Assembly: GCA_964588985.1 (NCBI GenBank)
Contig: CAZPQW010000001.1
Location: 64,001-128,000, forward strand
DNA length: 64,000 nt
Source of the DNA: an uncultured Solirubrobacteraceae bacterium
GTDB taxonomy: Bacteria; Actinomycetota; Thermoleophilia; Solirubrobacterales; Solirubrobacteraceae
Direction: 5' to 3'
Part shown: positions 12,787-15,898 of the stretch, one piece after another
Layout of the letters: every line of letters begins with the position of its first letter
How positions within the stretch are numbered: the stretch's first letter is position 1
Position numbers and translations under genes: made by a program
Notes under the pieces: model-generated
What the model was told of the DNA's origin: nothing
Databases searched by the model: none
What the model saw: the letters and a program-made list of their open reading frames with translations, nothing else

Positions 12787-12850
12787 ATGCTACGCCCCAA
12801 GGTTGATGGGGTCGTCGATCCAACGTCATCTGGCCTCTATGCATTGGGGT

Positions 12851-12940
12851 CAAATCGCTCCTCGTGAAGCCTCCGGATCAGAGGCCACGGAGATTTCGAG
12901 AGTCTTCCCGCCATCCCCGTGTTTGTTTGAAGTTCGAACT
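12851..12940. repeat. att-like repeat A1
   Basis: caaatcgctcctc...ggccacggagatttcgagagtcttcccgccatccccgt then gtttgtttgaagttcgaact; 7 substitutions and one fewer C versus A3. Confidence 0.9.
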
Positions 12941-12961
12941 GCGTGAAGCCAAGCGTTCGAG

Positions 12962-13414
12962 TCAGCCGGGGACGTCTACGGCGATGTTAGTGCGGCGAGT
13001 CAGGCCGACAAGCAGGTTGATGTCGTCTGGATCGCCGGTGACGATGGTCACCGCGCAGATCCGGCTGCGTTCCTCGGCCATCGCCACGACCTGTGCATCG
13101 GTCGGCGAAATGTCGTGGCGCGAGAGCGAAAGTGCCTCAGTCCGCAGTACGCCCGCGCGGGTAGCGGCCTCGACGGTCAGTGGCGCGTAGATGTCGTCCT
13201 CTGCGCCGATGGCCTTGATCAGGCGATCGACGAGTGCATCGGAGCGTCGTTGGCCGGATCGCACCTCGGTAAGCACGGGGATCGGGATCAGGAGCGCTCC
13301 ATCGATGCGCAGTTTGAGCACTTCGATATACGCAACGAGCAGGTCCCGGTTCGCGGCCAGCGCGCTGACGCCGCCACTGTCGAGCAGGAAGTCGCGGCGA
13401 GGCCGGTTGATCAC
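12962..13414 (-). CDS. PIN-domain (VapC-like) toxin
   Basis: FLLDSG, VLTEV, ISPTDAQVVAMA, IVTGDPDD. Confidence 0.85.
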   Translation of the reverse strand: MINRPRRDFLLDSGGVSALAANRDLLVAYIEVLKLRIDGALLIPIPVLTEVRSGQRRSDALVDRLIKAIGAEDDIYAPLTVEAATRAGVLRTEALSLSRHDISPTDAQVVAMAEERSRICAVTIVTGDPDDINLLVGLTRRTNIAVDVPG

Positions 13415-13593
13415 TCAGGCCAAGTGTCCGCGCGGCGCTGGAGCTCGGGCAGGTGCTTCGAGCCGTCGGCCCCCTCGGCGACGAGTTCGTCGCGCAACTG
13501 CTGGAGGCGAGCACGCTGGGCGTCACGGAGCTTCGGATCGTCCGCAGGCTGCGGCCCGACGTGCATTGCGATGGCGGCCTCCATTGCATTCAT
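13411..13593 (-). CDS. Putative antitoxin of the PIN toxin
   Basis: Small ORF with ATGA overlap onto the PIN gene; LQQLRDELVAEG. Confidence 0.6.
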   Translation of the reverse strand: MNAMEAAIAMHVGPQPADDPKLRDAQRARLQQLRDELVAEGADGSKHLPELQRRADTWPE

Positions 13594-13752
13594 TGTATCC
13601 AGAGTCTCGGCAGTCGGATCGGCGTTCTTGACTGACGCACAAGGCTGGCAGGCGGTCACGGAGCAGTGAGTTGGAGGTCTGCTTGACGGATCGCGGCGAC
13701 CGCTTGACGTCGCGCCGCCCGCCCGGCGGGCTTCATCAACTCCTCAAGTAGC

Positions 13753-13833
13753 CGATCCAGGGCGGCCTCTCGGTTTGCAACGCGTCCCGAACTCCCCCCG
13801 TTTTCCGCCGGTACGAGGTCGTTGTTCGAACTT
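13753..13833. repeat. att-like repeat B2
   Basis: Matches B1; C-run of 6 instead of 4. Confidence 0.9.
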
Positions 13834-13874
13834 CGTCCCGCTGAGATGTCTCAAGCGTCGATCATGCTTAGCGG

Positions 13875-14174
13875 GTGCCCGACGCCGTCAATCAGTTGCT
13901 CGCTACGGAGGCCGCCCTGAACAAGCTCGGGGCTCGGGGGATCTCTGTCGCAGAGGCAGAGCAGACGATCTGGAACCGCCATGTGGTCGTCAGGAACCGG
14001 CGGGGTAGCCCGGAGCGGCGTCAGTCCGATGTGCGCAGGCTCGTAGTCGGCCAAAGCGATGCGAACCGAGTCCTGACGCTCGTGATCGAGGAGACGATCG
14101 AGCCGACGACATGGCTGCTCGTGACGGGGTGGGATTCCACGCCTGCCGAGCCTAAGATCTTGGAGAGATCATGA
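13875..14174 (+). CDS. BrnT-like (RelE-fold) toxin
   Basis: KLGARGISVAEAEQ...RRLVVGQSDANRVLTLVI...LLVTGWD. Confidence 0.65.
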   Translation: MPDAVNQLLATEAALNKLGARGISVAEAEQTIWNRHVVVRNRRGSPERRQSDVRRLVVGQSDANRVLTLVIEETIEPTTWLLVTGWDSTPAEPKILERS

Positions 14175-14404
14175 TGCCCTCTCACCCAGATCCACTGCCG
14201 GGGGACTTCGACGAGGAGCTCGGCAGCCTGGACCCCGCTGACGTACAGGTGGTCGAGTCTTCTCACGGGCGTCATCTGAGCGTGCAGTTCACGCTCGAGG
14301 GAGACGACGCAGCGGCGCTGCAACGGATCGCTGACGACCAAGGCGAGAAGCCCGGCGAGGTCGTCAGGTCTCTGATCCGAGCAGCTTCAGCCAAAGCGGC
14401 CTGA
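14171..14404 (+). CDS. Putative CopG/RHH antitoxin
   Basis: ATGA overlap; LSVQFTLEGDDAAALQRIADDQGEKPGEVVRSLIR. Confidence 0.65.
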   Translation: MMPSHPDPLPGDFDEELGSLDPADVQVVESSHGRHLSVQFTLEGDDAAALQRIADDQGEKPGEVVRSLIRAASAKAA

Positions 14405-14546
14405 CCGCCCGCCGCAGCGGGTCCCTGAGCGTCATTAGAGGACTCATGGCTGCCGTTAGGTCGATGGGCGGGGAACCATTCGCGGTGGGGCATCCTGCGG
14501 AGTTGACCATTAGGGCGCTGAACGGCTATCGGCGGAGTTCCTAGGA

Positions 14547-14753
14547 CTAAAGTCCCAGTTCGGGAGTTTTTTTTGAGATGGCGACTGTGCTACAGACGAG
14601 CAGTGCCGCAATGACCACTACGAGCCCGTGGAGAGACTGATGAGCAAGACAGTCGACAGCGACGAGTGGGACGATCACGACCAGCCGGAGCGCGACATAC
14701 GCAAGGATCGCGTCGAGTGCTGCCTCACCTCTCTTCTCAAGCCATCGTCGCAT
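14547..14753 (-). CDS. Small two-TM membrane protein
   Basis: MRRWLEKRG followed by two hydrophobic segments. Confidence 0.35.
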   Translation of the reverse strand: MRRWLEKRGEAALDAILAYVALRLVVIVPLVAVDCLAHQSLHGLVVVIAALLVCSTVAISKKTPELGL

Positions 14754-14836
14754 GTGTTGATTGTCGTATGGCCCTAGGACGGAACCGGGTCTCGGCAAGC
14801 AGGTCGAGAGCGAACAGCCTCGGCTAGCAGGAGTCA

Positions 14837-14937
14837 AAATCGCTCCTCATGTAGTCGTCGAATCAGGGGCCACGGAGATTTCGAGAGTCTTCCCGCCATC
14901 CCCCGTTTTTAGCTGGTGCGAGGTCGTCGTTCGAACT
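14837..14937. repeat. att-like repeat A2 (A-type left arm, B-type right arm)
   Basis: 70 bp identical to 15829..15898, then ttttagctggtgcgaggtcgtcgttcgaact like the B1/B2 right arm. Confidence 0.92.
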
Positions 14938-14991
14938 CGCTCATTTTGCTAGTGCTCGAGCTGGCGAACAGCCCGACGATGGGGCGTGGTC

Positions 14992-15438
14992 CTACGCTGG
15001 CTGGTCCTGATCGGGCTCAAGTTGGTCAGGATTTGGCGGCGGGCCTGCGGTCTCTATCTCGGCTTCGGTCCACGCTCTGAGTTGTTCAACCAAGGCGAGT
15101 GCCGCAGATCGGTCCAGGGCTGGCGGTTCCTCGCCCTCGTAGCGGAACTCGACTGCCCAAGGCGACAGCACGTCGGCCTCGGAAAGCTCGTCCGGTGCCT
15201 CAATGTCGTTTTCCTCGACCAGGCCGATGAGGTAGCTCAGCGCGTGGCTCTTCACGAACGTCACCCCGCGAGCGGCCAGTACGGCCTTGATCAGCTTCTC
15301 GGCGGCCTGCTGTGCGTGAAAGCCGATGATCGCGTCGGCCACGTCGGTGTCCGGGCAGACCTTCTGCACGAGCGTCTCGTCATCGACGGCCCTGGCGAGC
15401 AGCACCCGCGCCAGGTCAAGCCGGTCATGCGGCGGCAT
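14992..15438 (-). CDS. HEPN-domain protein
   Basis: IGFHAQQAAEKLIKAVL, KSHAL, AVEFRY. Confidence 0.88.
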   Translation of the reverse strand: MPPHDRLDLARVLLARAVDDETLVQKVCPDTDVADAIIGFHAQQAAEKLIKAVLAARGVTFVKSHALSYLIGLVEENDIEAPDELSEADVLSPWAVEFRYEGEEPPALDRSAALALVEQLRAWTEAEIETAGPPPNPDQLEPDQDQPA

Positions 15439-15745
15439 GGAGCACTCGACCTTCGGTCAACGCGGCGTGGACCATCGTTCCCTTCACGGCCCCCCAGTCC
15501 TCCGCGTAGCGCTCGCTGACGACGACTACATCGAACGGCCTTCCGAGCGGGCGAAGCGCGCGACCGAGACGCACCATCTCGGCATGGCGGTCGCGAGGGT
15601 CGCGCTCTACGACCAGGAAATCGAAATCGCTGTCCGGGCCGGCGTCACCGCGCGCCTGCGAGCCAAACAACACGATCTTGACCGGATCGTCAGCGATAGC
15701 CGCAAGCGTCTGCCCTGCAGCCTCGATGATCTCCTGGGCAACCAT
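15425..15745 (-). CDS. Minimal nucleotidyltransferase (MNT antitoxin)
   Basis: VLFGSQARGDAGPDSDFDFLVV. Confidence 0.9.
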   Translation of the reverse strand: MVAQEIIEAAGQTLAAIADDPVKIVLFGSQARGDAGPDSDFDFLVVERDPRDRHAEMVRLGRALRPLGRPFDVVVVSERYAEDWGAVKGTMVHAALTEGRVLHAAA

Positions 15746-15827
15746 GGCGACACCGTAGCGAAGCCCGCGGATCAGGGCACAGAACGGTAGTCGTCCAGTT
15801 GCGGCAGACGATCTTTGGCGCCCGCCC

Positions 15828-15898
15828 CAAATCGCTCCTCATGTAGTCGTCGAATCAGGGGCCACGGAGATTTCGAGAGTCTTCCCGCCATCCCCCGT
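15828..15898. repeat. att-like repeat A3 (left arm only)
   Basis: Identity to A2 stops right after cccccgt. Confidence 0.92.

Follow-up and report, generated by a model that had tools for sequence, protein, structure and literature searches.

A large serine recombinase family of uncultured Solirubrobacteraceae whose C-terminal tail is probably exchanged on integration at tRNA genes

The 64,000-nt stretch of DNA analysed here (the window; positions 64,001 to 128,000 of contig CAZPQW010000001.1, assembly GCA_964588985.1, from an uncultured Solirubrobacteraceae bacterium) contains a tandem array next to a tRNA-Ser(GCT) gene, with five arm junctions at 11434–15898 and four units that have no recombinase; each joint in it consists of an arm of type A or B, the sequence CCCCG and a ~40-nt unit called D15. 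We propose, with a probability of about 0.8, that the A arms serve as P arms in attP-type attachment sites of a family of large serine recombinase (LSR) elements, which use tRNA 3' ends as their integration sites in uncultured Solirubrobacteraceae, and that integration swaps the C-terminal tail of the recombinase. An earlier note on this DNA had suggested that attP lies inside the integrase gene and that the tail is switched by integration, and this idea is supported by natural fusions, by array junctions and by in-silico joins of intact elements (4/4).

The proposed arrangement is as follows: The recombinase gene would lie at one end of the element and read outward, and the crossover would fall ~22–45 codons before its stop codon, at a CGG just outside the acceptor end of the tRNA. 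In the attP configuration (an excised circle, or a tandem array in which the P arm of another element stands behind the gene) the open reading frame (ORF) would run ..Q-M-A into the P arm and end in a conserved basic helical tail of type A (GMAGK/RxSKSPWPLIRRLHEERFG), A-like or B (..LLEPxGRxARRRAAEAIR). In the integrated state beside a tRNA gene, this tail would be severed and remain at the element's far end, and the ORF would read the tRNA antisense strand (..MAERAGFEPAMEF..) instead. Cassettes that have no recombinase, each with a P' arm (D15) at one end, a P arm of type A or B at the other and two or three small ORFs between them, would be moved in trans by the recombinase of another element, and the change of tail would alter the activity, direction or stability of the enzyme.

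A-type arms encode a conserved peptide

The A arms form a three-copy, 70-nt repeat family in the window (A1, 12852–12921; A2, 14837–14906; A3, 15829–15898; repeat finder), in which A2 is the reference copy, A3 is 100% identical to it and A1 86% identical. Their minus-strand translation is MAGRLSKSPWPLIRRLHEERF in each, exactly the common peptide that had been described. A1 differs from A2/A3 at seven positions in 63 nt (33, 39, 42, 43, 45, 48 and 51), of which six are third codon positions and one is a first position (an AGG/CGA arginine pair), and none alters the peptide; the statement that all seven substitutions are synonymous is thus correct. In 40,000 simulations of seven random substitutions in 63 nt, the peptide frame was never left unchanged and any of the six frames only 11 times; the synonymous pattern is real and not due to chance.

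The same bias is present in larger samples of A arms. The first, collected by blastn DNA similarity only and with no protein filter, contains 35 distinct ungapped copies (10 gapped or short rows were dropped). The entropies at the three codon positions of the distal 36 nt of these copies are 0.26, 0.27 and 1.15, and pN/pS (the ratio of nonsynonymous to synonymous variation) is 0.15 in the peptide frame versus 1.84 and 2.27 in the other forward frames, while the proximal 30 nt are near-invariant throughout (0.18, 0.29 and 0.26), as expected where a recombinase half-site lies. The second sample was collected with an exact 18-mer of the proximal part from one genome per species and gave 88 copies in the 80 loci fetched. 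Of these, 66 have at least 60% ungapped identity in their distal part and were kept, 6 can be recognised as arms but contain indels or have diverged strongly, and the other 16 are chance matches in other phyla, unrelated to the arms. The distal pN/pS of those 66 copies is 0.21 in the peptide frame versus 1.68 and 1.47 in the others; the two samples share some genomes. Judged from these patterns of variation, the A arm is bipartite, with a first ~30 nt constrained as a DNA half-site and a next ~36 nt constrained as a protein tail. A arms linked to D15 have a pN/pS of 0.185, close to the 0.131 of other A arms.

Recombinases that end in arm-encoded or tRNA-antisense tails

The recombinase remnant that had been reported to read into the tRNA antisense strand is present as minus-strand ORF 5832..6485. 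Its part outside the tRNA gene (6119..6485) encodes the C-terminal ~120–170 aa of an LSR and is followed by tRNA-Ser(GCT) antisense sequence (..KQMAERAGFEPAMEF..), so that the ORF reads ..KQMAERAGFEP.. across the joint. The remnant itself has no Pfam match, and it is 78% identical to residues 415–586 of the full-length protein P0006. Fifteen relatives were found by searching longer proteins with a junction peptide from genome G030, and these have a common body (..LVPLARKLARE..FRGHGLKSxQMA) and all diverge directly after ..QMA: two have an A tail, two an A-like tail, two a B tail and nine a tRNA-antisense tail (one of these nine is the window's own product). The A-tail proteins, P0001 (a full-length LSR of 586 aa that ends ..QMAGMAGKFSKSPWPLIRRLHDERFG..) and P0002, read GMAGKFSKSPWPLIRRLH(D/E)ERFG after the body; P0003 and P0004 end in ..SKHDPxWxRIRELHAQRF; the B peptide is the tail of P0005 and P0013 (590 aa); and P0006 and others have the tRNA-Ser antisense tail ..QMAERAGFEPAMEF... 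One body with an A, A-like, B or tRNA-antisense tail is the pattern that places a crossover inside the ORF, as in the class of elements with attP in the integrase gene. The full-length relatives (P0001, P0003, P0006, P0013 and others) match PF00239, PF07508 and PF13408 and thus have the resolvase catalytic, recombinase and zinc-ribbon/coiled-coil domains of an LSR, and PF00239 makes their catalytic chemistry that of a serine recombinase, not the tyrosine recombinase chemistry of the Mx8-type class (below).

Recombinases joined to an A tail were also found in arrays. In G030 a recombinase remnant of 45 aa at an array junction is in frame with the A tail IAGKASKSPWPLIRRLHDERFGT, which is followed by a stop codon. 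In metagenomic locus L080 a recombinase that ends ..SYIEQMAGMAGKFSKSPWPLIRKLHEERFG.. is followed by a YefM/RelE cassette, a D15 unit and tRNA-Ser(GCT), so that the cassette lies between the gene and the tRNA. Recombinases beside tRNA genes have the other kind of end: all seven loci fetched from the genus (7/7) read into tRNA-Ser(GCT), tRNA-Ser(GGA) or tRNA-Asp, and among the 28 metagenomic recombinase loci examined of the 42 returned, 24 end in the tRNA-antisense motif, one ends in an A tail and three could not be judged (two run off the contig, and in one the wrong ORF was picked).

Several other loci show composite or related sequences at these places. Locus L064 (10053–10189, genome G172) has two tails in tandem in one frame, an A-like tail (..TWKRIEELHQKR) and then a full A tail, and looks like an arm inserted into another arm. 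In metagenomic locus L081 (~3000–3300) the recombinase end ..SYIERMAE-RPGRPANREP.., which contains the start of a B-type arm, is followed by tRNA-Ser(TGA) antisense sequence, and this composite joint suggests that a truncated arm was left between gene and tRNA. The DNA that codes for the recombinase C-terminal motif (D/S)PxFRG(H/R)G forms a conserved hairpin, CCCCGnTTTTCGGGG, after which comes GGTTCG, and the complement of GGGGCCACGG, which lies 3' of the hairpin, recurs in the A arm, where it codes for SPWP; the hairpin-side sequence and the SPWP stretch may be parts of two half-sites.

In-silico joins and the position of the crossover

Joins were made between the recombinase 3' end and the far-end arm at the CGG that is common to all junctions. 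All four intact elements (G201, G202, G117:C12 and G075) join in frame, as the idea of circularised elements that fuse the recombinase to the arm peptide demands. Joining gives complete tails in G201 (3.3 kb, B), G202 (12.4 kb, B) and G117:C12 (~19 kb, A), and in G075 (~25 kb) a 1-nt deletion in the arm shortens the tail, which stops after ..SPWP. The arms of the intact elements joined here lie at the far end of the element, a position that the earlier note had suggested as a check; most A arms lie on cassettes that have no recombinase. The remnant in the window is in frame when it is joined to A1 or B1. The frame match with the remnant claimed in the earlier note thus stands for A1 (and for B1), with the junction ~2 codons upstream of the register chosen there, and does not stand for A2 and A3, whose frame is broken.

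The junctions themselves can be compared as follows: D15 adjoins tRNA-Ser directly in G111 and L080, where ..GGCAAAAA is joined to CGGAG.., and at its joints with arms ..GCGAAAAA is joined to CGGGGATGGCGGG... The recombinase end ..AAATGG is joined to CGGAGAGG.. at the tRNA and to CGGGGATGGCGGG.. at an arm. A single register, with the core at CGG, would fit all of these junctions, and it is compatible with the A-like and B arms too, in which ATGGCGG is absent. A crossover at CGG would explain why the CCA of the tRNA is encoded mainly where a recombinase end abuts. Among 30 tRNA-Ser(GCT) loci of relatives, most matches stop at the discriminator base, and those that include CCA are found where a recombinase 3' end abuts; in the window, the encoded CCA (6116–6118) appears to be supplied by the element. 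The canonical spacing, CGGGG directly followed by ATG, is found in 31 of the 35 A copies of the first sample and two copies are one base short; A2 and A3, with five G's before the ATG (+1), are the sole two copies with one extra base. The extra G's before A2, A3 and B2 may be homopolymer assembly errors.

The junctions share only CGG(A/G)GA, and, by eye, the P arm is ~5 bases longer than the tRNA arm between GGGA and TCGAA. A 5-bp register shift between attP and attB has been reported for phiC31 (bioRxiv 10.1101/2025.05.02.651858), and the ~5 extra bases of the P arm recall it, in half-sites compared by eye only. The A, B and D15 units were also considered as 3' fragments or pseudogenes of tRNA genes, and this was rejected since ARAGORN finds no tRNA there and no Rfam family matches the arms. 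The flanks of tRNA-Ser(GCT) in the 30 loci are heterogeneous, with no D15-type flank by automatic label. A search of 200 genus genomes with the right flank of the array (15899–17000) gave no empty attB; only a TetR gene and the next ORF (~15957–16905) are conserved, in 32 of the 200, and none of the 10 right-flank loci scanned has a tRNA gene within 1.5 kb, their flanks differing on both sides.

Evidence against the proposal and alternative explanations

A number of observations weigh against a tail swap on integration. With a crossover at CGG, A2 and A3 (one extra G each) and B2 (two extra G's) lose the frame. The crossover position itself comes from comparisons of junctions only, and one tRNA flank, in L129 (TCCCCCGTG..), resembles the A3 flank and would fit a different register. 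The B arms, which also look coding, show a weaker signature (pN/pS 0.48 versus 0.96 and 1.49) in a biased set of 10 copies, which were chosen by protein similarity and kept after filtering of false rows. The natural fusions whose context was inspected, G030 and L080, are tandem-array junctions; the first involves a remnant of only 45 aa, and the recombinase of the second is split by a frameshift near its N-terminus. No excised circle and no empty site was seen, and phage and plasmid collections contained no unintegrated copy, the closest relatives of P0001 there being ≤28.5% identical. The sole recombinase of the family in the window's genome (96% complete) is the remnant, and none is intact. 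An AlphaFold2 model of P0001 (34 sequences; mean predicted local distance difference test score, pLDDT, 75) has long paired helices at residues 374–470 and gives no structural clue to the tail, since the linker and tail (528–586) have pLDDT <50 and no docking; such low values carry no information either way on a docking site. Finally, only one of the 35 A arms in the genus sample adjoins a recombinase, and the long upstream frames listed for second-sample arms, not one of which resembles a recombinase C-terminus, are chance frames in GC-rich DNA. Since most A arms are not beside a recombinase, the selection signature would have to come from a history in recombinase-bearing "master" elements or from occasional juxtaposition; it is also possible that cassettes are selected for the tail that they hand to a neighbouring recombinase, as in L080.

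Of the alternatives, the one that survives best is that the tail has no regulatory meaning, i.e., that attP merely overlaps the 3' end of the gene, the appendage is dispensable and both forms of the enzyme are alike. The low-complexity linker is disordered in the AlphaFold2 model, integrated copies with tRNA-antisense tails are full-length and common, and the L080 cassette arrived after the recombinase element, which suggests that the integrated form or another enzyme was active. Three tail families that are each conserved as protein are, however, hard to explain if the tail does nothing, and we give a dispensable tail perhaps a minority chance, well short of even.

A second alternative, offered in the earlier note and disfavoured by the sampled copies, is that the arm encodes a micro-peptide of ~21–40 aa that is translated independently from the ATG. 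Such a peptide might, for instance, be a leader or regulator of the toxin-antitoxin operon downstream. The ATG is present in 28 of the 35 copies, toxin-antitoxin genes follow in the same direction in several cassettes, and the peptide signature persists in cassettes that have no recombinase. However, the other 7 of the 35 have ATC, ACG, AGG or AGC at the ATG codon and keep the peptide intact, GGGG abuts the ATG with nothing like a spaced ribosome-binding site upstream, the full-length recombinases read straight through the ATG, and an ATG is missing from this position in the B and A-like arms. Conservation of the ATG needs no translation because it lies within the near-invariant half-site, and we consider separate translation very improbable. 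Marginally less credible still is conservation purely at the level of DNA (an extended recombination site, or a protein-binding or RNA element, with an incidental open frame), to which the proximal 30 nt would conform in being near-invariant at all three codon positions and in resembling the tRNA arm with ~5 extra bases before the TCGAA motif, but against which stand the concentration of distal variation at third positions (1.15 versus 0.26 and 0.27), the low pN/pS in one frame only and its repetition in the second sample, the lack of any Rfam family on the arms, and the natural proteins that contain the tail. An arm that serves both as P half-site and as recombinase tail remains our preferred explanation.

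The tandem array at tRNA-Ser(GCT)

The block that holds the arms has a G+C content of 0.55–0.65, versus ~0.70 outside, and begins directly after tRNA-Ser(GCT), which lies at 6027..6118 on the plus strand (ARAGORN; Rfam tRNA, 61 bits) and would be the integration target (the B arm in attachment-site terms). The small sets of ORFs between arm/D15 joints indicate one decayed ~5.4-kb element, E1, followed by four ~1-kb units that have no recombinase, E2 to E5. E1 (6119..11544; G+C 0.55–0.62 versus ~0.70 in the flanks) has limits deduced from the arms. It starts with the recombinase remnant, encodes a 734-aa protein with a methyltransferase domain (7050–9254; Pfam RMKL-like, E 1.7e-10) that may be an orphan or defence-related methyltransferase, and by Pfam also a GDSL hydrolase (10026–10706) and a small helix-turn-helix protein (11133–11357). 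E1 ends in B1 (11434..11544, minus strand; repeat family D11), a B-type P arm that encodes the alternative tail ..SSGRVANRDDAVDRLSAELLEPTGKEARRRAADAIR.., matches the tails of P0005 and P0013 (tblastn, E 2.5e-8) and is 75% identical to B2.

The first D15 copy (11541..11581; CCCCG..GTTCGAAC; three-copy repeat family), a non-coding putative P' arm, starts cassette E2, whose cargo (11658..12786, minus strand) consists of overlapping ORFs of 252 and 125 aa; the larger is a weak nucleotidyltransferase match (DUF294, E 0.0095, below the curated cut-off), and the smaller has no Pfam match. A1, on the minus strand like A2 and A3, has the canonical spacing, is in frame and encodes ..PLIRRLHEERF in its distal ~36 nt. 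It is followed by a degenerate, shortened P' arm (12916..12945; CCCCGTG..GTTCGAAC) that was read from the sequence and lies outside the D15 family of the repeat finder. The cargo of E3 (12962..13659, minus strand) is a PIN-domain toxin (12962–13414; E 0.0019, below the curated cut-off) with an upstream 82-aa partner (13411–13659), and it is followed by the B-type P arm B2 (13687..13797, minus strand; ..SSGRVANREAALDRLLEELMKPAGRAARRQAVAAIR..), which has a run of six G's, and by D15 copy 2 (13796..13836; repeat finder). E4 carries overlapping small ORFs of 99 and 77 aa on the plus strand (13875..14404) that have no family match, and then A2, in which a stop follows ..ERF directly. D15 copy 3 (14901..14941) is joined directly to A2, and the two together would make a complete P-core-P' site. 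The cargo of E5 (14992..15745, minus strand) is a HEPN protein (14992–15438; Pfam, 2.2e-14) and a minimal nucleotidyltransferase (15425–15745; NTP_transf_2, 6.3e-11), and A3 is the terminal P arm of the array, on its attR side. Sequence conserved with relatives resumes only at ~15950–15965, past A3. The window array is probably a fossil. One other LSR in the genome has an unrelated tail and no tRNA beside it, and further D15-containing loci lie on two other contigs.

The TetR gene and the adjacent 108-aa ORF past the array (15957–16905) have 80–88% DNA identity to sequences in 22 other genus genomes (the 32 of 200 above counts any match at E ≤ 1e-20), and in 11 of 11 loci compared the sequence to either side of the pair has no relation to that of the window; the two genes may be a mobile module in their own right, or the island may continue beyond A3. 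Elsewhere in the window, the stretches 521–1526 and 4129–5134, which are 3608 nt apart and 71–76% identical, are paralogous and lie within large ORFs (one is a 701-aa ORF at 3335–5440), and 22977–24357 is a gene with internal repeats (8–9 copies, 60–84% identity, spacings of 141, 168 and 279 nt) that probably encodes a beta-propeller-type repeat protein on the minus strand.

Cassette cargo

E5 has the only toxin-antitoxin pair recognised by Pfam in the window, E2–E4 giving weak matches or none. Its HEPN/nucleotidyltransferase cargo is 82% identical in DNA over 720 nt to positions 15240–15959 of locus L069 (genome G201), where it lies behind a B-type arm, and the two loci have no similarity in their arms. 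Judged from this match, the cargo is modular, with like pairs behind arms of different type (A in the window, B in G201), and the pairing of one cargo with different arms hints at mobilisation of cassettes. In 22 inter-arm segments from elsewhere, all 149 ORFs of ≥65 aa were scanned, most of which are spurious GC-rich frames; Pfam matches were to PIN (three), NTP_transf_2 (three), HEPN (two), PhdYefM (two), ParE (two), VapB, PemK (MazF), CcdB and HicA, and type II toxin-antitoxin families predominate in these segments. In the 3.3-kb G201 element, neither of the two small ORFs gives an informative Pfam match that would make it a candidate recombination directionality factor, a kind of protein that shares no common family.

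Contig C24 of genome G000 (locus L004, 1183–1600) has a YefM/RelE pair, then D15, then an arm whose start, ATGGCGGGAAGAC, resembles that of A and which diverges after it into a short perfect hairpin (AGGGG TCGAAA CCCCT), with an insertion sequence-type transposase ORF downstream; ARAGORN finds no tRNA near these positions.

Distribution

Of 200 other genomes of the genus, 44 contain A-arm plus D15 DNA, often as several copies within a few kb, and 88 contain the recombinase family. Protein matches to the remnant were found in 11 of 36 genus genomes versus none of 24 from other families of the order, and the species-level 18-mer matches are overwhelmingly from uncultured Solirubrobacteraceae or Solirubrobacterales genomes. 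Similar arrays are present in G111, G117, G172, G201, G034 and G030.

Comparison with known systems and significance

The Int protein of Mx8 is a phage tyrosine recombinase. Its attP lies inside the integrase gene and it integrates at a tRNA gene region, whereupon the gene acquires a new 3' end and the properties of the enzyme change (PMC6070905). The Solirubrobacteraceae elements are like Mx8 in that attP would lie within the recombinase ORF, the target is a tRNA gene and the C-terminus would be replaced on integration; they are unlike it in that an LSR on small non-phage elements is involved, at least three tail families are interchangeable, and the severed tail is kept as a short peptide on many cassettes that have no recombinase. 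By this analogy the logic would be that of Mx8, with a serine recombinase in place of the tyrosine recombinase. In the open-access literature (supplements excluded) we found no serine recombinase ORF that crosses attP and no toxin-antitoxin mini-cassettes of a serine recombinase.

Integration of SSV1 splits its integrase gene, which encodes a tyrosine recombinase, in two at attP, and in mycobacteriophages, which also use a tyrosine recombinase, the cut gene is that of the repressor, from which a degradation tag is removed. The integration-dependent immunity of mycobacteriophages has been described as resting on a gene that is cut at attP, so that the integrated and free states encode different proteins (PMC4557955). 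Here, too, an element gene would be cut at attP and give a state-dependent protein, but what is exchanged would be a short recombinase tail, unlike the gene split in two of SSV1 or the cut repressor of the mycobacteriophages.

Chromosomal integrons are arrays of small, promoter-bearing, often toxin-antitoxin cassettes that are bounded by recombination sites and have no recombinase of their own. The arrays described here are similar in being small recombinase-less cassettes between recombination sites. They differ in that the sites found, which lie at the 3' ends of tRNA genes, are of the LSR type, with a P arm, a short core and a P' arm, in place of the attC hairpins and neighbouring IntI gene of an integron (no search aimed at IntI or attC was made). 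Tandem islands are also known at ssrA in Dehalococcoides (DsiB), where they lie downstream of the transfer-messenger RNA gene with a CcrB-like serine recombinase on the reverse strand beside attL, and 15 islands that lack an integration module were proposed to be cis-mobilizable by accretion (PMC3146451). Staphylococcal cassette chromosomes (SCC) and cis-mobilizable elements (CIME) are precedents given there for recombinase-less members moved by a neighbour's enzyme (PMC3146451). The likeness lies in tandem serine-recombinase elements at a tRNA-like gene, some of which have no recombinase; the Dehalococcoides islands are, however, large and carry dehalogenases, and the part of the report consulted mentions no ORF that crosses an att site and no tail swap (PMC3146451).

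What the exchange of tails would do to the enzyme can be approached by analogy, and attenuation of the integrated form, as in Mx8, is our best guess. A wider reading, which we hold as tentative and rather unlikely in its full form, is that the swapped C-terminus is a record of topological state, in which the native tail makes the enzyme integration-competent and the tRNA-antisense tail makes it attenuated or excision-biased, and that D15/P-arm units are integron-like cassettes of a serine recombinase. If this were true, a separate directionality factor would hardly be needed, or not at all, to control direction, and a cassette inserted between recombinase gene and tRNA would restore the native tail, as in L080; cassettes without a recombinase would then keep the tail intact because a landing cassette hands the enzyme its native tail back.

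LSRs are prized for genome engineering because they are one-directional, and the natural control of this direction is under active study. In engineered versions, directionality factors are fused to the LSR C-terminus through flexible linkers (PMC5737554; bioRxiv 10.1101/2025.05.02.651858). An LSR family that swaps its own C-terminal tail, carried on a flexible linker, at each integration would be a testable natural case of tail-dependent control. The arrays also show compact ~1-kb toxin-antitoxin cassettes with serine-recombinase sites, stacked at tRNA genes in a large fraction of an uncultured genus of soil actinobacteria (A arm in 44 of 200 genomes).

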